Origin: a virus
Length of the DNA: 64,000 bases
Virus record (IMG/VR): IMGVR_UViG_3300042882_001508
Strand: one strand, 5' to 3'
Shown: positions 7,658 through 62,444 of the stretch, piece after piece
How positions within the stretch are numbered: position 1 is the stretch's first letter
How the letters are laid out: each line of letters begins with the position of its first letter
Made by a program: the position numbers and the translations under genes
Notes under the pieces: generated by a model
Told to the model about the DNA's origin: nothing
Seen by the model: the letters and a program-made list of their open reading frames with translations, nothing else
The model's database searches: none

Positions 7658-7873
7658 ATGGCACTTACAATAACCATATCATCAATAACTGGCACGTCAC
7701 CTTACAATGTATATCTCTGTGAGGGAGATGGAACTGGATGTTTTTATATAAATCAGATTTCATCCACACCCTACACATTTGACATACCAGCACCCTATGA
7801 TACATCAACATCATATATGGTAAAAATAGTAGATGCTGTAGGTTGTATTATAACTTCCACTCAATCATTATGA
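7658..7873 (+). CDS. Small protein (71 aa) homologous to the N-terminal module of the next gene
   Basis: ITISSITGTSPYNVYLCEGDGTGCFYINQISSTPYTFDIPAPYD aligns with VTITSVTANTPVNIYYCDSLSASCVFVSSVATFPFVFDVPAPYD of the downstream protein. Its start codon abuts the upstream stop (TAAATG). Confidence 0.5.
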   Translation: MALTITISSITGTSPYNVYLCEGDGTGCFYINQISSTPYTFDIPAPYDTSTSYMVKIVDAVGCIITSTQSL

Positions 7874-9423
7874 GCCAACAAGTAACCATAACATCAGTAA
7901 CCGCAAACACACCAGTGAACATCTATTATTGTGATTCACTCAGTGCTTCCTGTGTTTTTGTTTCTAGTGTGGCTACATTCCCATTTGTATTTGACGTGCC
8001 AGCACCATACGACGAACAAAATTTTGTAATAAAAATTGAAGATACCTCAGGATTTGAAGATTATAAAACAATCGACATCACTCCTACCTCCACAAGTCAA
8101 CCCACCACAACTCCAACTAATACTCCGAGCCAAACTCCTACTCAGACACCAACGAATACACCCTCAAATACTACAACACCATCTCAAACGGGGACACCAA
8201 CTCAAACACCTTCTACATCAATTGAGGTATATCCCCCAATTCAACCGAGTCCAAATGTTGTTCAACACCCTGTAGGACAGAGTGTTGTTTGTGAAGCGGC
8301 AAATGCGTGTGATGATACCTTGACAACTAGAGTTCTATACAATTATGAAGCAGATGCTTCGGTGCAACCTGTGATAGGTATTACAATTTATTCTGCTTAT
8401 TTCAGTTCAGCTTTATACGACCCTTATAATGGCAACAACGAGTGGATTTTGATGAGTTGGATTAATGGAACCTATGCCGTACAGATTACACCACAGGGAA
8501 CAATCAAAAGTTTTGTTCTTTGTCAAGAAAATCCAACTCCTTCACCAACAAAAACGCCAACTACTACACCCACTAATACACCAACTCAAACTCAAACTCA
8601 GACACAAACACCAACGCAAACAGCAACACCTTCAACAACAGCAACGATAGGTCTAACCCCAACATCAACTGAAACACCAAGTCAAACCCCAACCCAAACT
8701 CCATCTACAACAACAACACTAACTGCAACACCAACCCAAACACCATCTCAAACTCAAACGCAAACCCAAACTCCATCTACAACAACAACACTAACTGCAA
8801 CACCAACCCAAACACCATCTCAAACTCAAACGCAAACCCAAACTCCTTCTAATACAGAAACACCGACACAAACTCCAACACCTTCAACTACTCCAATTTG
8901 TTGTAATTGCTTTGCATTGACAAACGAAGGAGACCCAACCAATACAAATACTACAAATTATACAGATTGTGATGGTAATCCACAATCTATTATAAATAAA
9001 ATACAATTTGCAACTGCAACTTACTTCTGTGCAGTTCCAGGGTCAATTACAACATCTGGAGGTTTGACCGTGCTCCAAGTTCCTGATGACCTACTCACTT
9101 GTGGTGGTTCTTGTCAACCATGTCCAACTCCTACACAAACCCCATCACAAACGGAAACACAAACCCAAACACCAACACCTTCACCAACACCAAATACTGG
9201 TTGTTATTCTTTAACAAATGAAGGAGACCCCACAGAAACCAATCTGACCACTTACACAGATTGTGATGGAAATCCACAATCAATTGTAAATAAAGCGTTC
9301 GAGTCAGGAGCAACTTACTTCTGTGCTCTTCCTGGTACAATCACATTTTCATCAGGTTTGACAGTAATAATGGTTGATGATAATTTAGGAACATGTGGAT
9401 ATAGTTGTGGAGGTTGTACATAA
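7870..9423 (+). CDS. Thr/Pro-repeat Cys-module protein. Putative fibre component
   Basis: Start revised to MSQQVTITS, an ATGA overlap with the upstream stop. It has TP/TQ linker blocks and two tandem ~80 aa Cys modules (CCNCFALTNEGDPT...CQPCPTP; GCYSLTNEGDPT...CGGCT). Confidence 0.7.
   Translation: MSQQVTITSVTANTPVNIYYCDSLSASCVFVSSVATFPFVFDVPAPYDEQNFVIKIEDTSGFEDYKTIDITPTSTSQPTTTPTNTPSQTPTQTPTNTPSNTTTPSQTGTPTQTPSTSIEVYPPIQPSPNVVQHPVGQSVVCEAANACDDTLTTRVLYNYEADASVQPVIGITIYSAYFSSALYDPYNGNNEWILMSWINGTYAVQITPQGTIKSFVLCQENPTPSPTKTPTTTPTNTPTQTQTQTQTPTQTATPSTTATIGLTPTSTETPSQTPTQTPSTTTTLTATPTQTPSQTQTQTQTPSTTTTLTATPTQTPSQTQTQTQTPSNTETPTQTPTPSTTPICCNCFALTNEGDPTNTNTTNYTDCDGNPQSIINKIQFATATYFCAVPGSITTSGGLTVLQVPDDLLTCGGSCQPCPTPTQTPSQTETQTQTPTPSPTPNTGCYSLTNEGDPTETNLTTYTDCDGNPQSIVNKAFESGATYFCALPGTITFSSGLTVIMVDDNLGTCGYSCGGCT
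8701..8844 (+). repeat. Tandem 72 nt coding repeat (2 copies) encoding [24 protein letters not shown]
   Basis: Two near-identical 72 nt units read directly from the sequence. Confidence 0.8.
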
Positions 9424-9455: not shown

Positions 9456-11654
9456 ATGTCTTGTAATTGTTACCATATCGAAATCCCACAATCCGTACAA
9501 ACCAACGGTGTTAATGAAATATATCTTTGGCAAAAACTTTGTAACTTATACTATATTGCTGGAGTTTGGAACGGCTCTCTTTTGACTTATATGGATGGAA
9601 CTACCGCGGTTTATGACCTGTGTTTGGACAACGAATATGGTATTGAATTTAGTTATGGGTTTAGTGGACCCAAATTCACAACATCTGAGGTTCCTGAAAT
9701 TACAGTAAATATTTTGGGTACTTGTACGGTAATTGGAGATTGTTATACACCACCAACACCCACTCAAACACAAACCCAAACTCAAACGCCATCGCCGACT
9801 CTTACATTAACAGCATCTCCAACCCAAACACCAAGCCAAACTCAGACACCATCACAAACCGGCACACCACCACCAACACCTACTCAAACACAAACCCAAA
9901 CTCAAACACCTTCACCCACAAAAGTTGTCTGTGGCATAGGAGTAACATCTCAAAGTTTTTATTATTATGATTGTTGTGGAAATCTGATATCATCTACTGG
10001 TGCAGGTCAAGAAGTGTCTTTTGATTACACTAAACCTTACCAAGGAGTTACAAAATTGAACCTCTCTACTTCCTCAGTTTGTCCAACTCCAACGCAGACT
10101 CAGACACCGAGCCAAACTCCAAGTCAAACCCAAACTCCAACACAAACACCATCTCAAACTCAAACGCAAACCCAAACGCCAACATCCACCCCTGTACCTA
10201 CGTGTTCTGCTCAACCAAATTTAGCCAACGAGTGTGAAGTTTTCACTCTATTCGATATGGGAGTTCAATGTAACTTGATTAAAGAGCCAACTGTCGGAAG
10301 ATTTGATGGTATATTATCAGTTAATGTGACAGGTGGAACAGCACCTTATACTTTCTATTGGAATACTGGTGAAAGGACTCAAACCATTTCTAACATACCT
10401 TATGGAAGGTACACAGTTCTTGTTGTGGATTATTATGGAGATTATTCCGCCACAACTGCGTGTAATATATTGGCTCCAACACCAACAGCTACTACCACAC
10501 CAACAATCACACCCACACCGTCAACAACACCACCTAACGCTCCACCGTTGTGTTTAAGATTTGTTTCACCTCCGAGTTTTGGAGGGTCTGGTGGCTCTGC
10601 TATGTATAAGGAATTACCTCTGACTTTCGTGACCTCTGGAAACCAAAACGGGAAACCAACGTGGTATAATTATTCAAAAAATCTTTCGATTATTTGGAAT
10701 GACTCAGTAACTCCTAACAGATGGGATATAACAAATTGGCCTTACGGAGGAACACCTATTTCAACAAACCAAGGAACAATACCAGATACAGGATGGCAGT
10801 TCTTGGGTACACCGGGTGTTTATTCCCAAATTGTTTCATCAAGGGGTCAATGTCCTTCGGTTTCTCCATTAGTTTTTGAATATCAAATAACACCAGCTTC
10901 TTGTCCAGGAGTTTGTAACGGAAGTTTGGTGGTTGTGCCAGGAGGAGGAATGACACCATTCAGCTACTCGGTTGATGGCGTTAATTTCCAAAGTTCAAAT
11001 ATTTTCAACAACTTGTGTCCTTCTACTTTCGGTCTTACAATAAAAGATGCTGTAAATCAAACTTATAGTCAATCCATAACAATTGGTTCAGGAACAGCAA
11101 CTACTTTGCAATTGAAACCTGAAATCATTACAAGTAATGGACCTGTCGCAAGTGGACCAAGTGTACAGACAGTAACATGGAAAATAACTTCTAATCCACC
11201 AATACCTGCTGGTGTTTCTTTAACAGGTCAAATCTTGTTCGAAATTTCACAAACAGAACAAGGTCCGACTAGCAGTTCAGGTCCAGCGACAACTTATTTA
11301 ATCAATGCATCTAACGTTGCAATTCAAAATAATTCTACATTAACTTTGTTGACATCTCCTATCATAACTCAAAGTGTCCCGAGTACTTGTAATTCAGCTC
11401 TTGTTTCAGCTTCGAATGAAAATTACTCACAATCAACTCTTGTTACTTTAGGAAATGGATTTATTTTGACAGGTACAACTGTTTCATCATTGAATATTAC
11501 GGGTGGAATTACTCAATTTAACTGTTCAACTACAGCTAAACAAACAATTTCGTTGACCCTTTCAAATTTCAAAGTTTTAGGAAATCCGTGTTACACGGTA
11601 CAAACACAGAATTTGGTATTGGTCAATAATCATACTTACACAATTTCGAGTTAG
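9456..11654 (+). CDS. Thr/Pro-linker protein carrying SprB-type repeats. Putative adhesin-like fibre or receptor-binding protein
   Basis: Two segments fit the SprB repeat pattern of Flavobacterium gliding adhesins: GRFDGILSVNVTGGTAPYTFYWNTGERTQTISNIPYGRYTVLVVDYYGDY and CNGSLVVVPGGGMTPFSYSVDGVNFQSSNIFNNLCPSTFGLTIKDAVNQ. TP/TQ linkers and an N-terminal Cys module (SCNCYHI...GDCYTPPTP) are also present. Confidence 0.7.
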   Translation: MSCNCYHIEIPQSVQTNGVNEIYLWQKLCNLYYIAGVWNGSLLTYMDGTTAVYDLCLDNEYGIEFSYGFSGPKFTTSEVPEITVNILGTCTVIGDCYTPPTPTQTQTQTQTPSPTLTLTASPTQTPSQTQTPSQTGTPPPTPTQTQTQTQTPSPTKVVCGIGVTSQSFYYYDCCGNLISSTGAGQEVSFDYTKPYQGVTKLNLSTSSVCPTPTQTQTPSQTPSQTQTPTQTPSQTQTQTQTPTSTPVPTCSAQPNLANECEVFTLFDMGVQCNLIKEPTVGRFDGILSVNVTGGTAPYTFYWNTGERTQTISNIPYGRYTVLVVDYYGDYSATTACNILAPTPTATTTPTITPTPSTTPPNAPPLCLRFVSPPSFGGSGGSAMYKELPLTFVTSGNQNGKPTWYNYSKNLSIIWNDSVTPNRWDITNWPYGGTPISTNQGTIPDTGWQFLGTPGVYSQIVSSRGQCPSVSPLVFEYQITPASCPGVCNGSLVVVPGGGMTPFSYSVDGVNFQSSNIFNNLCPSTFGLTIKDAVNQTYSQSITIGSGTATTLQLKPEIITSNGPVASGPSVQTVTWKITSNPPIPAGVSLTGQILFEISQTEQGPTSSSGPATTYLINASNVAIQNNSTLTLLTSPIITQSVPSTCNSALVSASNENYSQSTLVTLGNGFILTGTTVSSLNITGGITQFNCSTTAKQTISLTLSNFKVLGNPCYTVQTQNLVLVNNHTYTISS

Positions 11655-11692: not shown

Positions 11693-13942
11693 ATGGGTTA
11701 CGTAATTAAAAATACATCTGGTTTAATTAACACAAGATTGACTGACGTTGGAAGAAGACAAATCTCCCAAGGAAGTTTCAATATTTCTTATTTTCAAATT
11801 GGAGATAGTGAAGTTTGTTACACCGCAGCTACGAATTACAATCAGGTTAACAACAACATCTTAATGCCTTCTTTTGATGCTCAAAATAACACAGGTTATC
11901 CAGAAGCAAACAAAGAGAATATCAAATACCCATATTATGTTTCAGGTGGACAGGGTGGTACATTTGGAATACCATTCATGGCTAGTGATTACCAATTGGT
12001 TTACAACAGTGCCGGTTTAAAAGGATTTTTCAACACGGGCTCAACCACACCTTGGGTTGCTCAGATAAGTACAGCTTACACAATAACCTCCAATTATGTT
12101 GTAGATATGTCTACATGTTCAGGTCAGACTTCAATTTCAATTGAACTTGACCCTACTATTTGTGCGACCACAACAGGAACACCTTCAATAGGTGATTTTA
12201 TAACAATTTTCTTTGACGGAGTGGGTAGTTGTCAAGATGTTAACAATGTGCCAATATTGACTTACAAGATTATCAATTTATCACCGTCAGTTGGAACTAC
12301 AAGTCAGAGCCCTTGGGTTGTTACATTAGATAGAGAGGTCCCTAATTATACTGCACTTACATCAGGAAGTTATGCGAGAACACTAATTTACCCTTCGGGT
12401 ATGACTGTTCTTTATGATTTTATTACACCAGCACCTTATTGGCAAACTGATACCTTGAATTTTGAATCTCCGTGTGATGTGACTAATAGAGAAAATACTT
12501 TGATTTGGAATATGAATATTCCTTGGTCAGAGAGTCCAGCGGGAGTGTTTTCAAACACGGTACAGGGGTATCAATATTACGATTCAATTTCTTATTTAGG
12601 TTCAAAAGAATATTTGGGATATTCAACACAATCAGGTCAAACATTTGAAATTTCCACCACAAGAGCAAACGAACTAACTGACACATATTATTATAATTCC
12701 TATGGTGAAGAGGTTAAAGTATACCCAAATCAACAGAAAGCCATTGCAATAATCCATTACACAAATCAAGATATTGATTTTGTCTATGGTGAAAAGTTTG
12801 CTACAGTTCCTTTTGACCCACAAAACCCAACAGACGATACAGGACTTGCTCGTCATTTCAAACTTTATATTCCAACATTGATGTGGCATAAATCGACAGG
12901 AGCTACAATCGGTCAGACTTTCATGATTGACCCACCGAATTATGATTTGTGTAAACCACATTATATGAAGTCTACCAAAAACCTGAGAATGAATGAACCA
13001 GGTATGAGGTATTTCCAACTTTGGGATTTAAATCCAGATGCTAATAATAATTTGAACAGGGTAGGTAAAGTTTTCCCTGACCAACAAATTATTGTAATCG
13101 ATGATGAAGAGATTGTTGCTGCGTTATCTAACAAGTCTAATAGAAATTGGACCCTTACAGCCCCAAAAGTAAGTGCAGTTGTTCCAAATGTTTGTAGTAC
13201 AAATAATAATCTTCCTTTGTTTACACAGGCCTCAGATACAATTTGGCTGTCATATAGATTAGACTCAAATTCAAGTGGTTTTACAAATTCATTACATTGT
13301 AACTACTACTCCAAGGTAAATGCGCCAAGTAACACTACGGCAACAAATTGTTATAATTTGGCTGTTCAATTTGGAAACGAATTTCCCTATTTGAACTCAA
13401 ATTGGAGTTCTACTAACGTCACAGGTTTTAGTGCAAACTCAATCAAATTATTGGTTCAGAAAGTAAGTGGAGATACAAAACCTTCACAAACTGAATGGAG
13501 AGAAATCGACGTTACTTCAGATATTTCAAGTACGTTGTTGAACGGATACTTAACCGTAAGTGGAATAACAGGAAACACTTTCCAAATAGACGGTACAACT
13601 TTTGACAATGCGGCTCCTAACACCTACAACCTTTCCAATTATATCGATATTCCCTTACTTGGTGCAACAGGACCAACTTTAAACTTTGGTGGTGAGTATT
13701 ATTTTTACGGGAGTTTGGAAACTGATATTGCGGCAACTATCTACGAAATGAAATATCTTGTGAATTTGGGTAGAAACCAATTTACAAATACTTCGAACCC
13801 TACATGGATGTCAGGGACAACATCTTATGTCACCGAAATTGGTCTTTACGATTCAAATTATAATCTTATAGTTATATCTAAACTACAATCTCCTGAGAAA
13901 AGACAAGGTGTTCAGCAGTATGTAGTTAAATTAGATTTCTAA
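11693..13942 (+). CDS. Large virion-associated protein (749 aa), function unknown. Possibly fibre or baseplate associated
   Basis: A long ORF with uniform codon usage that follows the fibre-like genes. No motif was recognised. Confidence 0.5.
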   Translation: MGYVIKNTSGLINTRLTDVGRRQISQGSFNISYFQIGDSEVCYTAATNYNQVNNNILMPSFDAQNNTGYPEANKENIKYPYYVSGGQGGTFGIPFMASDYQLVYNSAGLKGFFNTGSTTPWVAQISTAYTITSNYVVDMSTCSGQTSISIELDPTICATTTGTPSIGDFITIFFDGVGSCQDVNNVPILTYKIINLSPSVGTTSQSPWVVTLDREVPNYTALTSGSYARTLIYPSGMTVLYDFITPAPYWQTDTLNFESPCDVTNRENTLIWNMNIPWSESPAGVFSNTVQGYQYYDSISYLGSKEYLGYSTQSGQTFEISTTRANELTDTYYYNSYGEEVKVYPNQQKAIAIIHYTNQDIDFVYGEKFATVPFDPQNPTDDTGLARHFKLYIPTLMWHKSTGATIGQTFMIDPPNYDLCKPHYMKSTKNLRMNEPGMRYFQLWDLNPDANNNLNRVGKVFPDQQIIVIDDEEIVAALSNKSNRNWTLTAPKVSAVVPNVCSTNNNLPLFTQASDTIWLSYRLDSNSSGFTNSLHCNYYSKVNAPSNTTATNCYNLAVQFGNEFPYLNSNWSSTNVTGFSANSIKLLVQKVSGDTKPSQTEWREIDVTSDISSTLLNGYLTVSGITGNTFQIDGTTFDNAAPNTYNLSNYIDIPLLGATGPTLNFGGEYYFYGSLETDIAATIYEMKYLVNLGRNQFTNTSNPTWMSGTTSYVTEIGLYDSNYNLIVISKLQSPEKRQGVQQYVVKLDF

Positions 13943-39520: not shown

Positions 39521-39625
39521 TTAGTTATATTTATTAATTGAGATTTTTTATGTCTCGGAATTATATTCAAAAATAATGACAAGATAAATCTAATTTAAAA
39601 TATTTATTCAAGTATACACAAATAG

Positions 39626-42313
39626 ATGGGTGAAAACATTTTTATAAGACCGAGTAATAGTATTTCAAGAACAGTTGATAGAATCCCTTTTATTGATTTT
39701 ATTAACGAGGCTTCTGATGCACCACTTAGAATGAGGATTTATGACCAACTCCCAAATGGTGCTTTTAAACAAATTATCAATTTTTCCAGTAGTACAACTC
39801 CAAATGTACTGACCATAAACTCATCTGCCCAAAAATTAGAAATCTATTCCGTAAATGTTATAAATAACTTAACTATTGGTTCAACTCAAGTTATTAATGC
39901 AACAGCGGATTGGATAGGACCAACAACAGGAATAGTCGGTACACAAGGAGCAACGGGAAACAAAGGAGCTCAAGGTACTCAAGGAGCTCAAGGTAATACA
40001 GGTGCTCAAGGTTCAGTTGGTGCAAACGGCGCACAAGGTGGACAGGGAGCACAAGGTAGCATTGGACCACAAGGTTCACAAGGAACTCAAGGAGCTCAGG
40101 GTAATACTGGTGCTCAGGGCAACGTAGGACCTCAAGGAGCTCAAGGTACCAAAGGACCTTTCGGAGATACAGGTGCACAGGGAGCCGTTGGACCACAAGG
40201 TGCACAAGGACCAACTGGAGCTCAAGGAAATACAGGAGCTCAAGGACACACTGGAGCACAGGGTGCGGTTGGACCTGTTGGTGCACAAGGAAGTACTGGT
40301 GCTCAGGGAAATGTTGGTCCACAAGGTGCCACAGGTCCTACAGGAGCTCAAGGAAACACAGGTGCTCAAGGAAACACAGGAGCCCAGGGTGCCACGGGTC
40401 TTACAGGAGCTCAAGGAAACACAGGTGCTCAAGGAAACACAGGAGCCCAGGGTGCCACGGGTCCTACAGGAGCTCAAGGAAATACAGGTGCTCAAGGACT
40501 TACTGGAGCACAGGGAGCAACAGGTCCAACTGGTGCTCAAGGTCCAACCGGAGCTCAGGGTAATACTGGTGCACAAGGAGCCATAGGTACAACAGGACCA
40601 CAAGGGGATACAGGTGCACAAGGGGCCGTGGGTCCACAAGGAGCAACAGGAGATATCGGTGCGCAAGGAGCCACAGGAGCACAGGGTAATTTGGGACCAC
40701 AAGGGGCTCAGGGAATTCAAGGTACTCAGGGAAAAGTTGGTGCTCAAGGAGCGGTTGGACCACAAGGTGCAACAGGACCAACAGGACCACAAGGTGCACA
40801 AGGTGGAACCGGACATCCGGGTGCGCAAGGAGCCATAGGTCCAACAGGTCCACAAGGTGCGCAAGGAGGTACAGGACATCCTGGTGCTCAAGGTGCGTTG
40901 GGTCCAACAGGTCCACAAGGTGCACAAGGAGGGACAGGACATCCTGGTGCTCAAGGTGCTATCGGACCCGCCGGACCTACAGGATTTCAAGGAGCTACAG
41001 GACATCCTGGTGCTCAAGGTGCCACCGGACCAACAGGACCAACAGGTGCACAAGGTGCTACAGGACATCCGGGAGCTCAAGGTGCAAAAGGTTCTATTGG
41101 ACCACAGGGTGCTGGAGGTGCGACTGGAGCTCTTGGTCCAGCAGGTAACACAGGTCCAATTGGACCAACTGGTCCTCAAGGTGCAACTGGACCCATCGGG
41201 GCTACTGGTAACACAGGACCAGGGGGACCTACAGGACCTCAAGGTGCACCGGGAGCCACAGGAGCTGGTGGTAACACTGGTCCTCAAGGACCAACCGGTC
41301 CACAAGGAGCACCAGGTACCAAAGGTGCGAACGGAGCTACGGGTCCCCAAGGCCCTACAGGTCCACAAGGAGCTACAGGAGCAACGGGTGCTACTGGTGC
41401 AACTGGTCCTACTGGGCCAACTGGACCGACAGGACCGCAAGGTGCTCAAGGGGCAGCAGGAGCTAAAGGACCACAAGGTCCAACAGGAGCACAAGGTGCA
41501 ACTGGTACAGCCGGTCCCCTTGGACCACAGGGTGGACAAGGTGCACAAGGTCCTACAGGACCTCAGGGTCCTGCTGGCGGAACTGGACCTACTGGTCCTA
41601 CAGGTGCTCAAGGTGCTCAGGGAGCTACGGGTGTGACTGGTCCTACGGGACCAACAGGTCCAACAGGTGCAACGGGCTCTCAGGGAGCTCAAGGTGCAAC
41701 GGGACCTGGAAGTGTAACATGTTATTCAGCTTACATCATAGCAAGAGGTGGAAGAGGTGGTAGCTGTGCGAATGTTTGTTCTACAACTTTTACTGTAGGT
41801 CCAGTCTACACGCAAAACGCAATTTATACACCATCATCGAATAAATACTTTAGTAACACAAACTGTCAAAATTCTACTTGTGATTGGGGTGGCTTATACT
41901 CTCACGAAAATTTTAATTCTGATTGCTACACATTGAATGCGACCTGTGGTAATGGTACCTTCGATTCTGTTTGCGCCTATTCAGATGTCAATCTCAAACA
42001 AAGTATAGAGACTTTAGAAGGGGTCATGGAAAAAATCTTGGAAATAGAAACAGTTGAGTATGATTGGAATGAAAACATTGGTAAAGAAAAATATGACATA
42101 TTTGAAAAAAATAAAAAACTTCACCAAATAGGTCTAATTGCCCAAAACGTAAGGTTACATTTCCCACAGGTAGTGAAAATGGGCTCTGACGGATATTATT
42201 TTATTGATTATACAAAATTAAATGCTGTAATAGTAGAGGGAATTAAAGAACAACAATTATTTATAGAAGATATTGATAATAAACTTGAAGAATTAGAAAA
42301 AAGATTTAGCTGA
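39626..42313 (+). CDS. Collagen-like tail-fibre protein with a C-terminal peptidase-S74 intramolecular-chaperone domain
   Basis: About 590 residues of uninterrupted Gly-X-Y ([10 protein letters not shown]...). A Cys-rich ~90 aa domain comes next. From 41981 the protein reads [14 protein letters not shown]...IGLIAQNV...YTKL, the S74 autoproteolytic chaperone signature (S-D-x-x-L-K). Confidence 0.8.
40793..40985 (+). repeat. Tandem 63 nt coding repeat (about 3 copies) encoding [21 protein letters not shown]
   Basis: Three units with minor substitutions inside the first collagen-like gene. Confidence 0.7.
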
Positions 42314-44772
42314 TGCCGAATGAACTGAAGATATTTCCACAGGGTAATGCTTACGATAGTAGACCTTGGTTTTATTGGGATGATAATTCCAATCAGGTGG
42401 CGTTTTTTGTTACAGCTAGAACTTTAAATTTTTCAGCGGGAACATTTACTCAAGGTTTGATGATTGGTCCTCAAGGAGTAAGAACTTCAGGACTAACAAT
42501 TAATAACTCGGGTTTATATATTGGGGTAAATCAGATGATTAATGCATCGGGGGTATGGACGGGACCCACGGCAGGAATAGCTGGTGCTCAAGGAGCGCAA
42601 GGTGCAACAGGAGCAACAGGAAAACAAGGTGCACAAGGTACTCAAGGGGCAAACACAGGTGCTCAAGGTGCAACAGGGGCTCAAGGAGCAACAGGTGCCA
42701 AAGGAACAGCAAGCGCTGTTTCAGGACCGACAGGGGACACAGGTGCACAAGGTACACAGGGTTCCCAAGGAGCTCAGGGAGCAACTCAGGGTGCCCAAGG
42801 TGCTGTTGGATTTCAAGGTGCTCAAGGAGCTCAAGGAGACCAAGGTGCCACAGTCGGAGCTCAAGGCAAACAAGGGGCTCAAGGCGCTCAGGGTGCTCAG
42901 GGAGCCCAAGGAGCTAAACAAGGTTCTCAAGGTGCAACAGGAAATACAGGTGCTCAAGGTTCACAAGGGGCGCAAGGAGCAACCACAGGTGCCCAAGGTA
43001 ACACAGGGGCTCAGGGGGTTCAAGGTTCTCAAGGTGCACAAGGTGCGAACACGGGTGCACAAGGTAACACAGGTGCTCAAGGTGCTCAAGGCTCTCAGGG
43101 TGCACAAGGAGCAAACACAGGTGCTCAAGGAAATACAGGTGCTCAAGGTGCTCAAGGAAACATAGGTGCTCAAGGAAGTCCTATTGGTGCACAAGGAAAT
43201 ACAGGTGCACAAGGTAAGCAAGGTGCTCAAGGAGCTCAAGGCACACCGACAGGTGCACAAGGTGCAACAGGAAAGCAGGGTGCCCAAGGTTCACAAGGTG
43301 CTCAAAGTGGGGTTCAGGGTTTACAAGGTGCCCAAGGTGCTCAAGGAGCAGTCGGGAGTCAAGGTGCTCAAGGAGGAACTACAGGTGCACAAGGAGACCT
43401 TGGAGTTTTTGGTGCACAAGGTTCACAAGGTGCTCAAGGGGGAACAACGGGAGCGCAAGGTGCTACAGGACCTACAGGTGCTCAAGGTGCTCAAGGAACT
43501 CAGGGTGCGAACCAAGGTGCCCAAGGGGCTACAGGACCTACAGGTGCTCAAGGTGCTCAAGGAACTCAGGGTGCGAACCAAGGTGCTCAAGGGGCTACAG
43601 GACCGACAGGACCCACAGGAGCTCAAGGTTCTCAGGGTGCAAGCCAAGGTGCTCAAGGTGCCTTAGGTGCTCAGGGTAATCAGGGTGCTCAGGGTTCTCA
43701 AGGTGCAAACCAAGGTGCACAGGGGGCAACTGGTCCAACAGGACCAACGGGAGCACAAGGTTCTCAGGGTGCGAATACAGGAGCTCAAGGAGCTACAGGA
43801 CCAACAGGAGCTCAAGGAGCACAAGGTTCTCAGGGTGCAAGCCAAGGTGCACAGGGAGCAACGGGACCAACAGGTAACACGGGTGCACAAGGTGCTGGAC
43901 CTGGTCCGCAAGGTGCACAGGGAGCAACGGGACCAACAGGTAATACGGGTGCACAAGGTGCTGGACCTGGTCCGCAAGGTGCCCAAGGGGCAACGGGACC
44001 AACAGGTAACACGGGTGCACAAGGTGCTGGGCCTGGTCCGCAAGGTGCACAGGGAGCAACGGGACCAACAGGTAACACAGGAGCTCAAGGCGCGGGACCC
44101 GGTCCACAAGGCGCTCAAGGTGCTCCAGGTGGTACAGGACCACAAGGAGCTACTGGTGCTCAGGGTACTCAGGGGTCAGGACCTGGTCCTATAGGACCGC
44201 AAGGAGCACAAGGTGCTCAAGGTGCTGCAAGTGGAACTGCGGGTGCACCAGGACCAACAGGACCTACAGGTCAACCAGGACCGACAGGATTAGCGGGTTC
44301 TACAGGACCAACTGGTCCACAAGGACCTACGGGAGCTCAAGGGGCTCAAGGTGGTGGAGGTTCAACAGGTCCTACAGGTCCACAGGGACCAACAGGTGGT
44401 CAGGGAGCTCAAGGTGCTCAAGGTCCATCTTCTGATATCAGATTGAAGGATAATATTATTCCGTTAAGAGAACCTGAGAAAAAAATTAAAACAATTGAAA
44501 GTGTGTCATTTGAGTGGGATACAGAACACAGGAAAATCAAAGAACATCCCGCAATAGTTTTCAAAGAAGCTTTCACAGGTAATACCTTTGGTTTCATCGC
44601 TCAAGAAGTGGAAAAGATTATACCTGAGGTAGTAGATACCGATGACGAGGGTTATAAAAGTATGCATTACGGACCTCTTGTTAGTTTGGGACTTGCGAAT
44701 CTCAAAATAAATCAAAAACGTATAGACTCTATTTATGAGAGGATAAATAAGTTGACTGAAATAATGAAGTAA
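42313..44772 (+). CDS. Collagen-like tail-fibre protein with regularly interrupted Gly-X-Y and a C-terminal S74 chaperone domain
   Basis: The Gly repeats carry frequent single-residue insertions ([21 protein letters not shown]). The S74 domain starts at 44431 (SDIRLKDNI...GFIAQEV...HYGPL). Confidence 0.8.
43846..44109 (+). repeat. Tandem 66 nt coding repeat (4 copies) encoding [22 protein letters not shown]
   Basis: Four near-identical 66 nt units. 22 aa per unit shifts the Gly register by one per repeat. Confidence 0.8.
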
Positions 44773-44773
44773 G

Positions 44774-47272
44774 ATGGCATCACCAGGAACATGTAGAATA
44801 TATAAAGTGGTTGGTGGAACCGGTGGAGGTTCATGGAGTGGACAACTCTGTGCATCTGCTACCGCGGTGAGTAGTAATGTTAACCAAGGAGTAACTCTTT
44901 ATACCCCTTGTATTAAAATAAGCTCTACATCATTTACAAACGTGACGACTACCGCTGTCGATTGTGATGGTACAGGAACAGGTGAAAATATAATAGTGGT
45001 ACCATCTCTATCATTAATGCAACTTGTAAGTAGTGCTGATACTTTCGTGAATTGGGTTTTGGAAAGTGGAGTTCTTAAATTTATACCATACAATGCATCT
45101 GAAGGAACATCCAGTCTAAGTATCCATACAACTGGTAATGTTTTGAGGTCCGATTTTGGAGTTTTCTTGGATACATCATTGAGCAATAATGCTCTAAGCC
45201 CATTAATTAATTCTACAGGGTGGTTAGGAAACAAACTGGCTCAGGGTGCACAAGGTGCACAAGGGGCTCAAGGAGACCAAGGTGCTCAGGGAAATGTTGG
45301 AGGTCAAGGTGCACAGGGAGGCCAAGGTTCTCAAGGAGCTCAAGGTTCTCAAGGGGCGGTAGGTGCTCAAGGAGTACAAGGAGCACAGGGAGCACAAGGT
45401 GCGGTTGGTGGACAAGGTTCCCAAGGAGGGACAGGTGCACAAGGAGCTCAAGGTGTGCAGGGAATAACCGGTGTTCAAGGTGCACAGGGTGGACAAGGTG
45501 CGCAGGGAGTACAAGGTGCCCAAGGGGCTCAAGGTGATATTGGTCAACCTGGAAGTCAGGGAGCACAAGGAGCCCAAGGAGGACAAGGGGCCCAAGGAGG
45601 ACAAGGTTCTCAAGGTGGTCAAGGTGCTCAAGGTGGTCAAGGTTCACAGGGTCTTACAGGTGGTCAAGGTTCACAAGGTGGTCAAGGTTCACAAGGTGGA
45701 CAAGGTGCCCAAGGTTCCAAAGGTGGACAAGGTTCACAAGGTGGTCAGGGTTCACAAGGACCCGTAGGTGCTCAAGGTTCTCAAGGAGGACAAGGTGCTC
45801 AAGGAGGACAAGGTGCTCAAGGAGGACAAGGTGCTCAAGGGGTACAAGGAGCTCAGGGTTCTCAGGGAGGTCAAGGAGCACAAGGTGCCCAAGGTGGTCA
45901 AGGTGCTCAAGGTGGTCAAGGTGCTCAAGGGGCAAAAGGAGTACAAGGTTCTCAAGGTGCTCAGGGTTCTAAAGGTGGACAAGGTGCACAAGGTGGACAA
46001 GGAACACAGGGTGCTCAAGGTGGACAAGGTGCTCAAGGTGGACAAGGTGCTCAAGGGGGTCAAGGTGCTCAAGGTGCTCAAGGTACCCAAGGTCTAACGG
46101 GAGCACAGGGTCCAGCTGGTGGTCAAGGTGCTCAAGGTGCTCAAGGACCTCAAGGTTCAACAGGTGCACAAGGACCTACAGGAGGACAAGGTGCCCAAGG
46201 TGCTCAAGGACCTCAAGGTTCAACAGGTGCTCAAGGTCCCACAGGAGGACAAGGAGCTCAAGGTGCTAAAGGGCCTCTTGGACCTACAGGTGCCCAAGGA
46301 CCTGCTGGAGGTCAAGGAGCACAAGGTGCACAGGGTCCACAAGGCGGACAGGGTGCACAAGGACCAACGGGAGGACAAGGTGCCCAAGGATTAATAGGTG
46401 GGACGGGTGGTCAAGGTGCGCAAGGACCAGCTGGTGGACAAGGTGCTCAAGGGGCTCAGGGTCCACAAGGTGGACAAGGTTCACAAGGACCAGCTGGTGG
46501 ACAAGGTGCTCAAGGGGCTCAGGGTCCACAAGGTGGACAAGGTTCACAAGGACCAGCTGGTGGACAAGGTGCTCAAGGTGCGCAGGGTCCACAAGGTGGA
46601 CAAGGTTCACAAGGACCAGCTGGTGGACAAGGTGCTCAAGGGGCTCAAGGTGGTGGAGGAGGTACTGGTGGTCAAGGAGCACAAGGTGCTACAGGACCAG
46701 CCGGACCAACAGGTCTTACAGGTTTCCAAGGAGCTCAAGGGCCAGGGGGTGGTCAAGGAGCACAAGGCCCAACAGGAGCAACTGGTGCGCAAGGTGCCCA
46801 AGGTGCTAAAGGTCCAATTGGACCTACAGGTTCACCTGGGGGAACAGGAGCTCAAGGTGCACAAGGGCCAGTAGGACCTACAGGTCCCCAAGGTCCAGCA
46901 GGTGGAACGGGACCTCAAGGTGCTCAGGGTGCTCAGGGTGCTACAGGACCCTCGGACTATAGGGTAAAGAATAACATTCAGCGGATAGAGAATGTTTTAC
47001 CTAAAGTTTTGAAGTTGAGAGGTGTTTCTTTTGAATGGAAAAATGTTGATACCAAAACACATGGTCCTGTATCAAGTGACATCGGATTTATTGCCCAAGA
47101 AATTCAACAAATTTTCCCTGAACTTGTATTCAAAAAGAATCACAAGGACTCTCATTATATGGTGAAATACTCTGAAGTTATTGCTTTATGTTTGGAGGCA
47201 ATAAAAGAACAATCCCTATTGTTAGATGAAAAAGAGGAAAGACTTGAAAAACTTGAAATGAAAGTTAAGTAA
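44774..47272 (+). CDS. Collagen-like tail-fibre protein with a C-terminal S74 chaperone domain
   Basis: About 570 residues of uninterrupted Gly-X-Y that are GGQ/GAQ-rich. The S74 domain starts at 46952 (SDYRVKNNI...GFIAQEI). A bidirectional terminator follows the gene. Confidence 0.8.
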   Translation: MASPGTCRIYKVVGGTGGGSWSGQLCASATAVSSNVNQGVTLYTPCIKISSTSFTNVTTTAVDCDGTGTGENIIVVPSLSLMQLVSSADTFVNWVLESGVLKFIPYNASEGTSSLSIHTTGNVLRSDFGVFLDTSLSNNALSPLINSTGWLGNKLAQGAQGAQGAQGDQGAQGNVGGQGAQGGQGSQGAQGSQGAVGAQGVQGAQGAQGAVGGQGSQGGTGAQGAQGVQGITGVQGAQGGQGAQGVQGAQGAQGDIGQPGSQGAQGAQGGQGAQGGQGSQGGQGAQGGQGSQGLTGGQGSQGGQGSQGGQGAQGSKGGQGSQGGQGSQGPVGAQGSQGGQGAQGGQGAQGGQGAQGVQGAQGSQGGQGAQGAQGGQGAQGGQGAQGAKGVQGSQGAQGSKGGQGAQGGQGTQGAQGGQGAQGGQGAQGGQGAQGAQGTQGLTGAQGPAGGQGAQGAQGPQGSTGAQGPTGGQGAQGAQGPQGSTGAQGPTGGQGAQGAKGPLGPTGAQGPAGGQGAQGAQGPQGGQGAQGPTGGQGAQGLIGGTGGQGAQGPAGGQGAQGAQGPQGGQGSQGPAGGQGAQGAQGPQGGQGSQGPAGGQGAQGAQGPQGGQGSQGPAGGQGAQGAQGGGGGTGGQGAQGATGPAGPTGLTGFQGAQGPGGGQGAQGPTGATGAQGAQGAKGPIGPTGSPGGTGAQGAQGPVGPTGPQGPAGGTGPQGAQGAQGATGPSDYRVKNNIQRIENVLPKVLKLRGVSFEWKNVDTKTHGPVSSDIGFIAQEIQQIFPELVFKKNHKDSHYMVKYSEVIALCLEAIKEQSLLLDEKEERLEKLEMKVK
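46424..46650 (+). repeat. Tandem 63 nt coding repeat (about 3.5 copies) encoding [21 protein letters not shown]
   Basis: Near-identical units inside the third collagen-like gene. Confidence 0.75.
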
Positions 47273-47277
47273 AAAAA

Positions 47278-47305
47278 GAAAGGGGTTTTTTTAAACCCCT
47301 TTTAT
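47278..47305. terminator. Bidirectional intrinsic terminator between the convergent fibre gene and the minus-strand cassette
   Basis: aaaaaaag-aaaggggttt-tttt-aaacccctttt. The hairpin has an A-run on the 5' side and a T-run on the 3' side. Confidence 0.6.
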
Positions 47306-48145
47306 ATTAATCTTACTTTTTGTATCTTCAATTGATTTGTATAACATAGTCAAAAATCTCGGCCAAATTTTTGGGTTATGTTTCTTAATAAGTTCCACAT
47401 AGGTCAAATAATAAGGTTCATTACCCTCTCTCGCCGAAATAAAATCTGAAAGACCAGGATTTACAGTCGCAATGTCACTTAAAGACTTTGAAATTCTATT
47501 TTCCAATACCTCTTCATCATTAACTCTCCTTAAAATGTCCAAAGAAAGTTTGGAAAGTTTTTCGCCATTGGCAAAATAATTCAGAATGTTATCCAAGCTT
47601 TGGACCAAATACTTTTTATTTTCAGGATTTTTTAACATCAAGGTTCTTCTATCCATCTCAAGTTCCAAACCTTCCAAAAACTCATTTGAAATTGCTCTGA
47701 ATTCGATTGGATGACCCCAATACTTCTCATCACTTTTCTCGTCGTAAGTAAGACTGTATTTCGGGCTGAATTTTGTAGATTGACTAGGGTCCGTGGCGTG
47801 AAGCATTTCGTGGTAAATTGTAAGGTATAAGTTTCTTCTCGAAACATATTCTTTTGGTTGTAATTCCATTACAAAATCCATCGGGTCTCTCGACTCTTTT
47901 GGGTTGGTATCCATATAACCCAAATAAGGAAGTCTTGGGTTGATTATTACTTTCACATAACCATCAACACCGTCAGAAGTTTTAAATGGAAATCCGTCAA
48001 CAAGAGTTTTTCTTGTAAACTTTTTATCTCTCATACTCCACAATCTATCAGCTAAATCTTGAATGTAGAAATTTAGTTCAGGGTCCATTTTGAACCTTGA
48101 TGCTTCAGTTAGAATAGAAGTTAATATGTTTAATATTTTAGGCAT
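47291..48145 (-). CDS. HExxH-motif protein (putative metallopeptidase-like)
   Basis: LYLTIYHEMLHATD contains HEMLH. Confidence 0.45.
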   Translation of the reverse strand: MPKILNILTSILTEASRFKMDPELNFYIQDLADRLWSMRDKKFTRKTLVDGFPFKTSDGVDGYVKVIINPRLPYLGYMDTNPKESRDPMDFVMELQPKEYVSRRNLYLTIYHEMLHATDPSQSTKFSPKYSLTYDEKSDEKYWGHPIEFRAISNEFLEGLELEMDRRTLMLKNPENKKYLVQSLDNILNYFANGEKLSKLSLDILRRVNDEEVLENRISKSLSDIATVNPGLSDFISAREGNEPYYLTYVELIKKHNPKIWPRFLTMLYKSIEDTKSKINIKGV

Positions 48146-48911
48146 TTAAGTCAGTTCTCCAATCAATAGGTATGCTCTTTGTATACATTTTGGAGGCATA
48201 CTTCTGAAATGTGTCTTTAAATTTTATTACATATTTTTTTATTTCCTTTATACTCGTCAAAGGGGCTTCAATCCCTGTAGATAAATAGGCTTGAATCTCA
48301 TCATCTATCACGTTTGGTCCATAACCCATTTTGGCAATCTTGTTTCTCAAAGGCTCCTCAACAAAATCAGGAAGTTCATCTATATTCATAGTCTGTTCTG
48401 CTTTATATTGGGGGGATGAAAACCACAGACCGTGTGCGAGTTCGTGTTGAATTAAAGAAGCGTCCTCACCATTTTCTTGGTCAATTCCAATAAGATAAAA
48501 CTTATCTCCTCCAACCTTTGATTTGATTGTATCAACAATACTGAACATTATTAAGTCGTAAAAATTAATGTCAGGGATTAGAGCCATACACGATTCAATT
48601 GAATCACAAGGGATATTATATCCAGCCCAATCTTCATGATATGTTAAGATGTCATTCTTTGTTTTTCTTTTGTAATAATCTACAAACTCTGTCCACTTGA
48701 AACCTTTCCCTCTGAAAGTATCCGAGTCAGATTCATAAAACTCTTGATACCTCATAAACACTCTCCCTCTCAATTTATTGTCTTTAATAACAACGGCATA
48801 TATTCTCGGATAGACCTCAAATAATTTAATTTGAGATAGTAAGTTACCTATGTACTTCGGTGGGGTTTTGGAAGGGCTCCTCGATATTTCTTTCAAATAA
48901 TTTTTCATCAA
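48138..48911 (-). CDS. HExxH-motif protein (putative metallopeptidase-like)
   Basis: SLIQHELAHGLW contains HELAH. Confidence 0.45.
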   Translation of the reverse strand: MMKNYLKEISRSPSKTPPKYIGNLLSQIKLFEVYPRIYAVVIKDNKLRGRVFMRYQEFYESDSDTFRGKGFKWTEFVDYYKRKTKNDILTYHEDWAGYNIPCDSIESCMALIPDINFYDLIMFSIVDTIKSKVGGDKFYLIGIDQENGEDASLIQHELAHGLWFSSPQYKAEQTMNIDELPDFVEEPLRNKIAKMGYGPNVIDDEIQAYLSTGIEAPLTSIKEIKKYVIKFKDTFQKYASKMYTKSIPIDWRTDLNA

Positions 48912-60199: not shown

Positions 60200-61370
60200 T
60201 TATCAAAGTAGTTCTTTAACATACTTCTACTCAAGGTTCAACCAGAGCATGACTTGGATGGTGACACGGGGACTTGGGTAGTTTTATAATACGGCGGGCG
60301 GAGGGCAAGGTGTCCTGTTGGTCTCATAAGCCAATTTAGCTCAGTTCGATTCTGAGGCGTCGCAACAAAAAAAGTTTTATAAAAATTTGACGAATTGAAA
60401 AGTTCTTCTTAATTTTGTAAGACAATTGAGGGAAAGGGGTTGTAAAGTTCCTTACCGAAGTCGGGGGTTGTAAAAATTTCCACTCTCCTTCAATACTTGA
60501 TAGTTCTTTGTTTTAAGATATTGGCCGCCTATGGTCATTAAATAAACTACGAAAGTAGTATAAAGTGGGACACCAGGTTTTAGTGTTCTGCGGTATCAAA
60601 GGGGTACTCGAGTAGGCAATCAGGATATGTTCTGACCTTTAGTACTGAGGGTAACACTGTAGGGAAAGTGGTTGGAATACGGGGCGATACGGGTCGTCTC
60701 GTTGAGGTCGGAAGACTAATAAGAATAATCTGAGGAATCTATGTGAGAAATTATGGCTTCCACCATAGTCATCACGTAATTCAATATGAAAGTTGACTTA
60801 AAACCGAAAGGTAAGTTGATGTACAGGTGGTGCTGTTATTAACCTTGAAACGTCTCTACCAAGAGCGTATCACTGAAGTTGACTTGAAGTATGGAGGTCG
60901 GGAGACTTCAGAGAGTAGTTTAGTATCGTGTCGTTCAAAAGGCGACACGGCTGGTGACAGACCGCTACTTTCCACATCCGTAAACCAACCCTTAATTGTT
61001 AATTCTGGTTTAACAACTTATAATTAAAATCAAGGAAAAGTGTCTGTCAGTCGTTGGAAACAGGTGACTACTTAGTCTTGAGATGTTCATGACCGCGTTG
61101 GGTCCCAAGCCCTTCACGATTTTCACGAAAGTTCTCTATTCCCGCAAGGAAGAATTGGGGTGGCAACCTCGAAGAGTGATGAGTAAGGAGAGAGTATTCA
61201 ACGATTTAAGGATTGGTTAATCTAATTGACCGTCACTGAGAGTTACTGTTCAAAAGACAGTGGAAACGGAGGGAATAAATAATCCTTCTAAAGATTCTCA
61301 ACAAAGCTTGTATTCTCAGAGTTTTTTGCCAAACCCTGACCGTTTCTACGGTTGGGGTTTTTTGTTTTCT
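60200..61370. ncRNA. Candidate large structured non-coding RNA or RNA-element cluster. Strand and class undetermined
   Basis: A ~1.4 kb stretch (59911..61394) has no credible ORF. It is visibly G+C- and purine-richer than flanking genes. A hand count of a few 60 nt lines gives mid-40s %GC versus roughly one third nearby. It contains a T-arm-like hairpin (ctcag-ttcgatt-ctgag at 60339..60355) and a hairpin plus T-run near 61346..61368. Confidence 0.3.
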
Positions 61371-61394
61371 GAAGTATTTATAAGAAAAAATACG

Positions 61395-62444
61395 ATGTAC
61401 ATAAAAAAACTTTCGCCTCAGGAGGCTTTGGAAACAATCAAATTGAGAATGAATTATGATTCATCAAAAACTTTGAACGAAAATAAGTTGATAGTCCTCG
61501 AACAAAAAGCCAATCTCACAACAAACCAACAAGCAGCATTAACTCAAGGTTTTGGTCCTGTGACAGCCAAAGCAGCTGACGATTTAGCTAAACAGGGAAA
61601 GTTGAAAACAAACACATTAAAATCTGTTTTTGGGGGCACTCAAACTCCTACCTCCGCGGTTGATACAAGTACCGCTAACAAACAAACCTCTGACACAGGA
61701 GTTGGAAAAGCTATACAACAAGGTGTTCAAGCGGCAAACCTCAAAATAGATGTATCTTGTATTGGATTCAACGGTGAAGAATATAAAGAAATCACAACAG
61801 CTTTAGTAAGCTCTGACGGCATTGGAAAACCGGTTCACGTTTGGAGATTTTGGCCTGACGGAAAAGCAATATATGTCGAAAGTGGGGATAAGTATAAGTA
61901 TACATACAAATGTAGTAAAACTAAACCTGGTGTTGTTGAAATAACAGATGTTGATTCTTCAGAAGTGGATGAATACAAATTATTTGATAAGAAAAATTCA
62001 CAAACAGTTGCCCCTAAAAAAGCTGTTCCAATTCCATCAGAATTGAAAGACATCGAGGGTGTAAAAAAATTCCAAGATTGGTTAGATAAAAACCATGAGG
62101 GTTGGCATGACAAATACAAAGTTTTGAATAGTAGTGTTCCTAAAGGTTATGGTAAATTTGGTCCGAGAACCAATAAATGGTGGAAACTTGAGGGTCCTGA
62201 ATTTATAGGTTCAGTTAAACCAACGACACAAGCTCCTGATACCACTAAGGCACAAACACAGACCTCCCCAAAAATTGATACAACACCACCAAAAGCTGAA
62301 ATACCTAAACCCGTAAAAGGCTTTCAAAAATTTGCTCAAACTCAATTCGGTGCAAATGGACCTCAAACCACTGCTCAATCGGCAACTGGTGGACCTGCTA
62401 CCCAAGAAACAAAAAGAGTTGCAAATCAAGATACTGAATTCTAA
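61395..62444 (+). CDS. Hypothetical protein. Start revised downstream of the track ORF start
   Basis: The track ORF begins at 61260, but a hairpin plus T-run (ccgtttctacgg-ttggggttttttg) lies inside its first 45 codons. The in-frame MYIKKLSPQ at 61395 follows that element. Confidence 0.4.
   Translation: MYIKKLSPQEALETIKLRMNYDSSKTLNENKLIVLEQKANLTTNQQAALTQGFGPVTAKAADDLAKQGKLKTNTLKSVFGGTQTPTSAVDTSTANKQTSDTGVGKAIQQGVQAANLKIDVSCIGFNGEEYKEITTALVSSDGIGKPVHVWRFWPDGKAIYVESGDKYKYTYKCSKTKPGVVEITDVDSSEVDEYKLFDKKNSQTVAPKKAVPIPSELKDIEGVKKFQDWLDKNHEGWHDKYKVLNSSVPKGYGKFGPRTNKWWKLEGPEFIGSVKPTTQAPDTTKAQTQTSPKIDTTPPKAEIPKPVKGFQKFAQTQFGANGPQTTAQSATGGPATQETKRVANQDTEF

Follow-up and report, generated by a model that had tools for sequence, protein, structure and literature searches.

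Three length-locked collagen-like genes with S74 chaperone domains in a jumbo phage suggest a heterotrimeric fibre

Why a single virus should carry three long collagen-like genes in a row, each closing with its own S74 intramolecular-chaperone domain, is a question raised by a 64,000-nucleotide stretch of viral DNA (IMG/VR record IMGVR_UViG_3300042882_001508; the whole stretch is called the window here), in which genes of this kind, numbered 1 to 3, occupy positions 39626 to 47272. An earlier reading of the sequence, referred to below as the original prediction, had taken them for three distinct or alternative fibre species. Comparison of the window with related loci leads us to favour, with slightly better than even confidence, another answer: genes 1–3 would encode the three chains (A, bearing a knob; B, interrupted; C, plain) of a single ABC heterotrimeric collagen fibre with its chains in register, which S74 domains specific to each paralogue would nucleate and afterwards release. 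The genes are as follows, each defined by an open reading frame (ORF) and by matches to the Pfam families Collagen and Peptidase_S74 (aa, amino acids).

39626..42313, + strand: gene 1, 895 aa, the knob-bearing chain
42313..44772, + strand: gene 2, 819 aa, the periodically interrupted chain
44774..47272, + strand: gene 3, 832 aa, the uninterrupted plain chain

The tandem arrangement of collagen followed by a C-terminal S74 domain was found where it had been predicted, and the profile comparison that the original prediction had proposed returned both families in all three genes, above the Pfam cut-offs throughout: Collagen at 267, 177 and 142 bits in genes 1, 2 and 3 (gathering cut-off 27.2) and Peptidase_S74 at 39.7, 44.5 and 56.6 bits (gathering cut-off 22). 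The outcome named there as refuting, the lack of an S74 match, therefore did not occur. The collagen parts are laid out as follows.

39929..41710, + strand: gene 1 collagen region, aa 102-695, 198 uninterrupted Gly-X-Y triplets with a 21-residue period
42574..44430, + strand: gene 2 collagen region, 197 triplets and 25 interruptions, with a period of 22 residues (66 nucleotides)
45245..46954, + strand: gene 3 collagen region, 190 uninterrupted triplets with a 21-residue period

Some 570–590 residues of Gly-X-Y had been described for every gene; the run is unbroken in genes 1 and 3, but gene 2 is interrupted, its interruptions recurring at the 22-residue period, about one per 7 triplets, as single inserted residues (mostly T, Q or P) in 24 cases of 25 and as SAVS in the remaining one. 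These periodic interruptions are kept in orthologues, and Tandem Repeats Finder returned periods of 66 nucleotides for gene 2 and 63 nucleotides for genes 1 and 3. Since collagens with interruptions are known, those of gene 2 are compatible with its membership among the collagens. In all three genes the X position is rich in Ala and Pro and the Y position in Gln and Thr, with Pro at 6–11% and charged residues at 1.2–1.5%.

Related loci (L numbers) were anchored on homologues of the gene at 47291-48145 of the window, 15 coming from IMG/VR and 80 from metagenomes, with a further 3 added via exact-protein look-ups; the anchor protein is 54–98% identical across them. Collagen length was expressed in triplet-equivalents, in which a Gly-X-Y triplet counts 1, a one-residue insertion 0 and a gap of 2-4 residues 1, and the statistics cover the 26 distinct clusters with at least two complete chains. 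Cluster means run from 72 to 362 triplet-equivalents, and yet within 18 of the 26 clusters the spread between chains is at most 2 (Pearson r 0.984 over 56 chain pairs). When chains were shuffled among clusters, 0.9 clusters matched on average and at most 8 did so in 20,000 trials. The following are triplet-equivalents in the order chain 1/chain 2/chain 3 unless otherwise indicated.

L004: 161/161/160
L006: 161/161/160
L011: 195/195/194
L031: 233/233/232
L034: 268/268/267
L057: 72/73/71
L080: 158/157/156
L083: 141/140/139
L086: 144/143/142
L102: 215/216/215 (a further case)
L030: chains 2/3, 275/274 (chain 1 incomplete in the locus)
L036: chains 2/3, 172/171 (chain 1 incomplete in the locus)
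L046: chains 2/3, 140/139 (chain 1 incomplete in the locus)
L064: chains 2/3, 141/140 (chain 1 incomplete in the locus)
L093: chains 2/3, 268/267 (chain 1 incomplete in the locus)
L050: two complete chains, 361 and 362
Window: 198/198/190

For chains 1 and 3, both uninterrupted, the match is independent of the counting rule, as the residue numbers themselves show (483/480, 586/582, 699/696, 804/801 and 1083/1084). The lengths also change in step. Between the window and L034, whose neighbour protein is 98% identical and whose fibre proteins are 87–95% identical where aligned, the length change consists of one contiguous block of ten repeat units per gene, measuring 210 aa in genes 1 and 3 and 220 aa (10 × 22) in gene 2, with one extra 21-aa unit in gene 3 beyond its block; in the window, the collagen of gene 3 is one 7-triplet unit below the value expected if gene 3 equals gene 1 minus 1. 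Among other presumed close relatives, genes 2/3 stand at 233/232 in L031 and at 275/274 in L030, and at 140/139 in L046 and 172/171 in L036. Since independent fibres would have no reason to hold identical triplet numbers through repeated expansions and contractions, we conclude from the sequences that the chains would stand physically in register. The view of the original prediction, that these are three independent or alternative homotrimeric fibres whose similar lengths reflect common descent or a loose requirement for reach, is in our estimate improbable. Each gene is complete, with N-domain, collagen and S74, and in 8 of the 26 clusters the chains differ by 8-36 triplets, as that view would allow; it is opposed by the agreement within 1-2 triplets in the other 18 over a five-fold range of length, of which shuffling falls far short, and by the repeated coordinated length changes among close relatives.

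The conserved quantity is the number of triplets, not of residues or nanometres. The match is unaffected by the 20-39 residues inserted in chain 2 (B), and equally by the domains of 180-221 aa that are inserted in one chain of some relatives; in L067 and L097 the inserted domain is a PA14 domain (Pfam E 2.6e-11). In the ABC model such inserted domains and single residues stay out of the match because, confined to one chain, they can loop out. These observations also bear on a second alternative, in which each gene makes its own homotrimeric fibre (A3, B3 and C3) and the three are packed side by side in register or tied at both ends, hence their equal repeat numbers. We regard this as possible, at well under an even chance. 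Homotrimers are the rule for S74 proteins and for bacterial collagens, single-residue insertions at regular intervals pose little difficulty in a helix whose three chains all have them, and the locked lengths, the all-or-none presence of the genes and the common repeat period described below would be expected here too. But a B3 fibre would be about 4% longer in residues than its partners (window: 619 vs 594 and 570; L034: 839 vs 804 and 801), and still it is the triplet count that is conserved; large globular inserts in one chain leave the match undisturbed; and such a bundle would require an extra, hypothetical lateral interaction. Gene conversion, tried as a cause of the equal lengths, was ruled out: the paralogues have almost no 18-mers in common (18-mer Jaccard index no higher than 0.012 in the window, with low values in the other genomes as well).

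The three genes also come and go as a set. Where both flanking genes are present, the gap between them is either 4.1–8.8 kb and holds three collagen/S74 genes, or 80–167 bp and holds none; no such locus was found with one or two. Empty sites were seen in eight relatives (L007, L008, L060, L062, L076, L088, L090 and L096; for example L008 10861-10937), and since their flanking genes stand just 80–167 bp apart, the three-gene cassette is accessory, an insertion/deletion polymorphism in this phage group. In each cluster exactly one chain has a knob, of 82–94 aa, and the two others pass from collagen straight into the S-D-x-x-x-K motif. A single ABC fibre would explain both the two chains without a distal domain and the gain and loss of the genes as a set. 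For three independent fibres, the lack of partial clusters and the distal domain in one chain of three are further points against; for a bundle of homotrimers, B3 and C3 would be bare rods after cleavage, with nothing at their distal ends. The S74 domains fall into three orthologue groups, with identities of 46–93% within and 24–38% between them, and these groups, together with the scarcity of shared 18-mers, indicate that the triplication of the chains is old and that their lengths were not homogenised by gene conversion. The repeat period is common to the chains of one genome and varies between genomes (21/22/21 in the window, 39/41/39 in L004 and L006, 42/44/42 in L010).

The S74 groups differ in ways that would fit a choice of partners. 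The net charge of the last 40 S74 residues is -3.0, +1.7 and -1.6 for chain types 1, 2 and 3, and the catalytic Ser mostly lies at +3 from the last Gly in chain 2 (B) and at +2 in chain 3 (C). The three S74 groups, with these charge differences and Ser offsets, are suggestive of chain-selective trimerisation, and only that. The differences give the ABC model some weaker support, as does L050, whose chains combine the N-domain and S74 types differently from those of other loci; the third chain of L050 is cut at the locus end, and its set is taken to be complete. In one clade (L038, L044, L093 and L016/L092), the periodically interrupted chain carries an S74 domain of the gene 3 type, and its interruptions are two-residue gaps (PQ, PT or PI, one residue missing) every 5-6 triplets, not one-residue insertions; with the gap counted as a triplet, the match is restored in L093 (267 vs 268) and L044 (142 vs 144), and L038 is still mismatched (174 vs 163). 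All three chains of L004 have GGP-GPA-GGP-GPA-GGP at an identical index (triplets 148-155), 6-13 triplets before the C-terminal end, a stretch that could be a common nucleation segment beside the S74 domains. Chains 1 and 3 of L097 are both interrupted at triplets 86, 100 and 114; this was not counted as evidence, the chance being about 1 in 14 given equal 14-triplet periods.

The C-terminal parts of the window proteins are arranged as follows.

41711..41980, + strand: gene 1 Cys-rich knob, aa 696-785, ~90 aa with 8 Cys, separating the collagen from the cleavage Ser
41981..42310, + strand: gene 1 S74 intramolecular-chaperone domain, aa 786-895, Ser786 and Lys791
44431..44769, + strand: gene 2 S74 domain, aa 707-819, Ser707 and Lys712; the collagen abuts the S74 domain (GAQGPS, then SDIRLK)
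46952..47269, + strand: gene 3 S74 domain, aa 727-832, Ser727 and Lys732 (GATGP, then SDYRVK)

The hallmarks named in the original prediction, S-D-x-x-(L/V)-K and G(F/L)IAQ(E/N), are present, with the catalytic Ser and Lys in place, and neither across 40 homologues nor across 15 orthologues and paralogues does the Ser, Asp or Lys of S-D-x-x-x-K vary. A C-terminus of about 105–115 aa had been expected in each gene; chains 2 and 3 do run directly into an S74 domain, and in gene 3 the catalytic Ser727 is even the last residue of the final collagen triplet, but gene 1 ends in 200 aa of non-collagen sequence made up of knob and S74. Comparison of the predicted model indicates an S74 fold like that of the solved chaperone domains. 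For gene 3, the S74 part retrieved the MYRF ICA domain and a chain of the phage S16 long tail fibre in a sequence search, and it matches 761 phage records, most of which carry the annotation tail fibre or long tail fibre, a result that reflects the S74 module only, as does the same tail-fibre picture obtained with Foldseek against viral models. In phage T5 pb1, a homotrimer, the Thr1263-Ser1264 bond is cut by a Ser1264/Lys1269 dyad (PMC4690869). The Ser-Lys spacing of genes 1–3 is the same, and their S74 domains are predicted to cleave themselves off just before the Ser by a Ser-Lys dyad, which would give mature chains of 71.6, 62.7 and 64.5 kDa and released fragments of 13.0, 13.1 and 12.4 kDa for genes 1, 2 and 3.

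The gene 1 knob was modelled with a predicted local distance difference test score (pLDDT) of 75–92. In an alignment of 40 homologues it is much more variable than the adjoining S74 domain, yet its Cys residues are kept. It had no Pfam match, and a fold search gave it no specific match, every Protein Data Bank (PDB) and viral match stemming from the S74 part. The variable Cys-rich knob and the PA14 carbohydrate-binding inserts of relatives point to a probable role in adhesion to a host-surface glycan.

At the other end, the N-terminal regions of the window proteins are these.

39626..39928, + strand: gene 1 N-terminal all-beta domain, aa 1-101, ending in the pre-collagen motif
42313..42573, + strand: gene 2 N-terminal domain, aa 1-87, homologous to the gene 1 N-domain
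44774..45244, + strand: gene 3 N-terminal region, aa 1-157, a ~70-aa extension with 4 Cys and then the domain ENIIVVPS...INSTGWLG

Each gene had been thought to have an N-terminal domain of its own, but hhalign shows those of genes 1 and 2 to be homologous (probability 98.3%, E 1.2e-14), and two fibres with the same head fold are again not what independent fibres would lead one to expect. With this homology, the all-or-none trio, the single distal domain and the matched triplets, the claim of three distinct or alternative fibre species is not supported. The gene 3 N-domain has only the first motif (ENIIxxP) and the last (INSTGW) in common with those of genes 1 and 2. An AlphaFold2 (AF2) model of the gene 1 N-domain has a mean pLDDT of 78 and 8 strands, and a fold search with it returned generic beta-sheets only, with no specific PDB match. 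Word-indexed protein searches with the N-domains gave 5 matches and 1 match, and an exhaustive profile search found 69 relatives among 1.84 billion representatives. Public gene calls fragment the collagen genes, as at L004 8000-14600 and L102 7440-16090; the three genes of L004 are broken into more than 10 pieces, with a Pfam label on the S74 ends only. Because gene callers fragment these genes, protein databases under-represent the family and word-indexed searches find few full-length relatives. The ~70-aa extension of gene 3 occurs also in the near-identical relative L034 and is absent from the orthologues in L004, L006, L010 and L011, and is lineage-specific. Homology of this extension to the gene 1 knob was tried and rejected (BLASTP E 0.22, hhalign probability 0.2%).

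The junction motif that had been noted before the collagen of genes 1 and 2 is there, but it is not limited to them: gene 3 has it in the reduced form INSTGW, and it recurs in unrelated metagenome proteins. In its wider form, V-G-(G)-x-Q/E-V/M-I-N/D-x-x-G-x-W-x-G-P/S-x-x-G-h-x-G, it lies directly before the collagen at 39893-39940 and 42538-42585 of the window, and it precedes collagen in the metagenome fibre proteins P0183, P0187 and P0190, in some cases with several copies in one protein. It looks like a general cap at the N-terminal end of a collagen helix.

Two further elements delimit the genes.

39538..39567, + strand: promoter candidate, sigma-70-like, TTGAGA-18-TATATT, ~60 nucleotides upstream of gene 1, from a consensus scan
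47279..47302, no strand assigned: strong hairpin, AAAGGGGTTT-AAAA-AAACCCCTTT, separating the convergent stops of gene 3 and of the gene at 47291-48145

The stop codon of gene 1 (42311-42313) overlaps the ATG of gene 2 (TGATG), and the ATG of gene 3 comes 1 nucleotide past the stop of gene 2. The promoter candidate has 10 of 12 consensus matches, as a pattern match only and to a sigma-70 consensus that may not be the host's, and the hairpin is likely a bidirectional terminator. Genes 1–3 thus form one operon: their stop and start codons overlap or adjoin, and there is a single promoter-like site and a single terminator. The G+C content of their collagen parts is ~57%, against ~32% window-wide, and G+C at third codon positions (GC3) is 0.13–0.18, as in an AT-rich genome; because GC3 is low, the high G+C is attributed to amino-acid composition (Gly, Ala, Pro and Gln codons). 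Recent horizontal acquisition as its source was ruled out, a GC3 of 0.10–0.19 fitting an AT-rich genome. Long ORFs in other frames or on the opposite strand within the collagen DNA are repeat shadows. The gene 1 protein has exact copies on NCBI, ENA and JGI metagenome contigs.

Assembly of the proposed ABC heterotrimer would proceed in six steps. Translational coupling would supply the chains in near-equal amounts. The three paralogue-specific C-terminal S74 domains would then associate and gather the collagen C-termini, and from there the triple helix would zip from the C- to the N-terminus over ~198 triplets (~170 nm). Each S74 domain would next cut itself off just before Ser786, Ser707 or Ser727, by a Ser-Lys dyad as in T5 pb1 and K1F endosialidase. 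The mature fibre would have at one end a complex of N-terminal beta-domains for attachment to the virion and at the other a single Cys-rich knob from chain A alone, a probable glycan or receptor binder. Finally, the extra residue of chain B in every 7 triplets would produce regularly spaced bulges or kinks. Computed at 0.286 nm per residue, the fibre would be ~170 nm long in the window phage and 60–310 nm across the group.

Several points weigh against this model. The rule for counting triplet-equivalents was set after the data had been seen. Eight of the 26 clusters, the window included, are mismatched, by about 7n triplets (8-36), which means either that the chains put up with mismatch or that some of the assemblies contain errors; tandem repeats can be misassembled from short reads, though such errors would not produce matched numbers. 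To our knowledge, all solved S74 proteins are homotrimers. A one-residue insertion in one of three chains breaks the one-residue stagger of the helix unless it is bulged out, and a homotrimer accommodates it naturally. In chain A, the 82–94 residues between collagen and S74 would need to loop out while the S74 domains associate. Charged residues (1.2–1.5%) were too few for inter-chain pairs of opposite charge to be judged by triplet index, and a search for a compensating Gly-Gly-X opposite the Gly-less triplets of chain B found no consistent offset across genomes. Heteromeric assembly is itself something we infer from triplet-number locking, and a review of prokaryotic and viral collagen-like proteins regards them as homotrimers (PMC8968730).

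As to the origin of the DNA, the window also encodes a primase, an exonuclease, SbcC/SbcD homologues, a sigma factor, a RuvC-like resolvase, methyltransferases (including Dam methylase), an HNH endonuclease, DnaJ, thioredoxin and glutaredoxin. For the SbcC homologue, the nearest counterparts are those of a 190-kb Microcystis phage and of uncultured phages of 484–735 kb, and syntenic relatives occur on contigs of up to 321 kb; by this affinity and these contigs, the source is a jumbo phage known from metagenomes alone. It is a large phage of freshwater type. Among isolated phages, no close relative was found for the flanking DNA or for the gene 1 N-domain, only distant SbcC-like matches, among them Microcystis phage Mel-JY01.

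No tail or baseplate module was recognisable beside the collagen genes, whose neighbours are thioredoxin, glutaredoxin, DnaJ, Dam methylase, primase, SbcCD, sigma factor and unassigned genes. The cassette thus sits amid non-structural genes (thioredoxin, glutaredoxin, DnaJ, methylases, replication and recombination), and it is dispensable in relatives, two facts that would suit non-virion proteins, for example secreted or host-surface-modifying collagen-like proteins made during infection. We consider this very unlikely, a shade more so than independent fibres: S74 domains are known from the fibres and spikes of phages and viruses, with the eukaryotic factor MYRF as the exception, the gene 3 S74 part has the many tail-fibre matches given above, nothing resembling a signal peptide was seen at the N-termini when these were read by eye, and structural genes are often scattered in jumbo phage genomes. 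The name tail fibre is nonetheless an assumption for genes 1–3, whose fibre may be attached to the tail or to the capsid.

Some other features of the window may be recorded. The two conserved genes directly downstream of the cassette, at 47291-48145 and 48138-48911 (both - strand), have HExxH motifs (HEMLH and HELAH), and their products could be metallopeptidases; neither had a Pfam or PHROG match. A full-length GOLLD RNA lies at 60911-61322 on the + strand (Rfam RF02032, matched over model positions 1-416 of 416 with 318 bits, the gathering score being 150), ~550 nucleotides downstream of the sole tRNA of the window, a tRNA-Met at 60290-60366; the program-listed ORF 61260-62444 overlaps its 3' end. 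At 3782-7657 (+ strand), a 1291-aa protein has several hundred residues of Thr-Pro-rich, mucin-like repeats amid Cys-rich globular modules, and three further large proteins follow (7843-9423, 9456-11654 and 11693-13942), one of them with an SprB repeat (Pfam 33.9 bits). This part of the window has raised G+C and a negative GC skew, and its proteins may be a second set of surface or adhesin-like proteins.

Set against known systems, genes 1–3 share the C-terminal intramolecular chaperone (Peptidase S74) with K1F endosialidase, the L-shaped tail fibre pb1 of T5 and the neck appendage of phi29/GA-1. In those proteins the folded part is a triple beta-helix, whereas here it is a collagen triple helix that abuts the Ser directly in two chains; and they are single-gene homotrimers, whereas here three diverged S74 paralogues stand in one operon with length-matched chains. 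The tail fiber protein of Synechococcus phage S-CAM9 (AOV60402.1) has the same order as gene 1, a collagen-like stretch, a globular domain and a C-terminal S74, but with ~170 collagen residues in ~1,830 aa and from a single gene, compared with collagen over ~70% of each chain, three chains and locked triplet numbers here. Collagen followed by a C-terminal S74 domain has already been reported in fibre proteins of polinton-like viruses (PMC12220804). Collagen with a C-terminal S74 is a known architecture; the length-locked, all-or-none trio with a single knob is new.

The nearest likeness to the proposed heterotrimer is found in animals. Complement C1q, a heterotrimeric collagen, is built from A, B and C chains that three tandem genes encode, and a chain-specific one-residue insertion gives it a kink. 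Like genes 1–3, it has a linked gene trio, a short N-terminal region, collagen of matched length, a C-terminal trimerising domain and tolerated interruptions. The sequences are unrelated, and C1q keeps its gC1q head whereas the S74 chaperone of the phage would be discarded; unlike C1q and the animal heterotrimers generally, the phage chains have almost no charged residues and no hydroxyproline machinery in view, and their heterotrimer is argued from sequence. Scl1 and Scl2 of Streptococcus and BclA of Bacillus anthracis are likewise Gly-X-Y rods without hydroxyproline, rich in Thr, Gln, Ala and Pro, but they form homotrimers, nucleation being the task of a globular domain at the N- or C-terminus that is retained, with no length-matched gene triplets. 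We put at about an even chance the broader proposal that the fibre of this jumbo phage would be the first natural ABC heterotrimeric collagen outside animals, its chains selected, registered and nucleated by S74 paralogues that are then discarded, and asymmetric, with one monomeric receptor-binding knob and with chain-B bulges every 6 nm.

Heterotrimeric collagens are described as a remaining challenge for bacterial collagen systems, stoichiometry and chain stagger being hard to control with peptides and recombinant collagen (PMC8968730). If the ABC model is true, a natural three-gene set with self-removing registration domains would be a ready tool for making heterotrimeric collagen, S74 chaperones would have a new mode of assembly, and a virus would be seen to build an asymmetric fibre of 60–310 nm out of very simple sequence. 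Even if the products are three homotrimers, a triplet number kept within one triplet despite fast repeat expansion would be an unusually clean case of compensatory length evolution.

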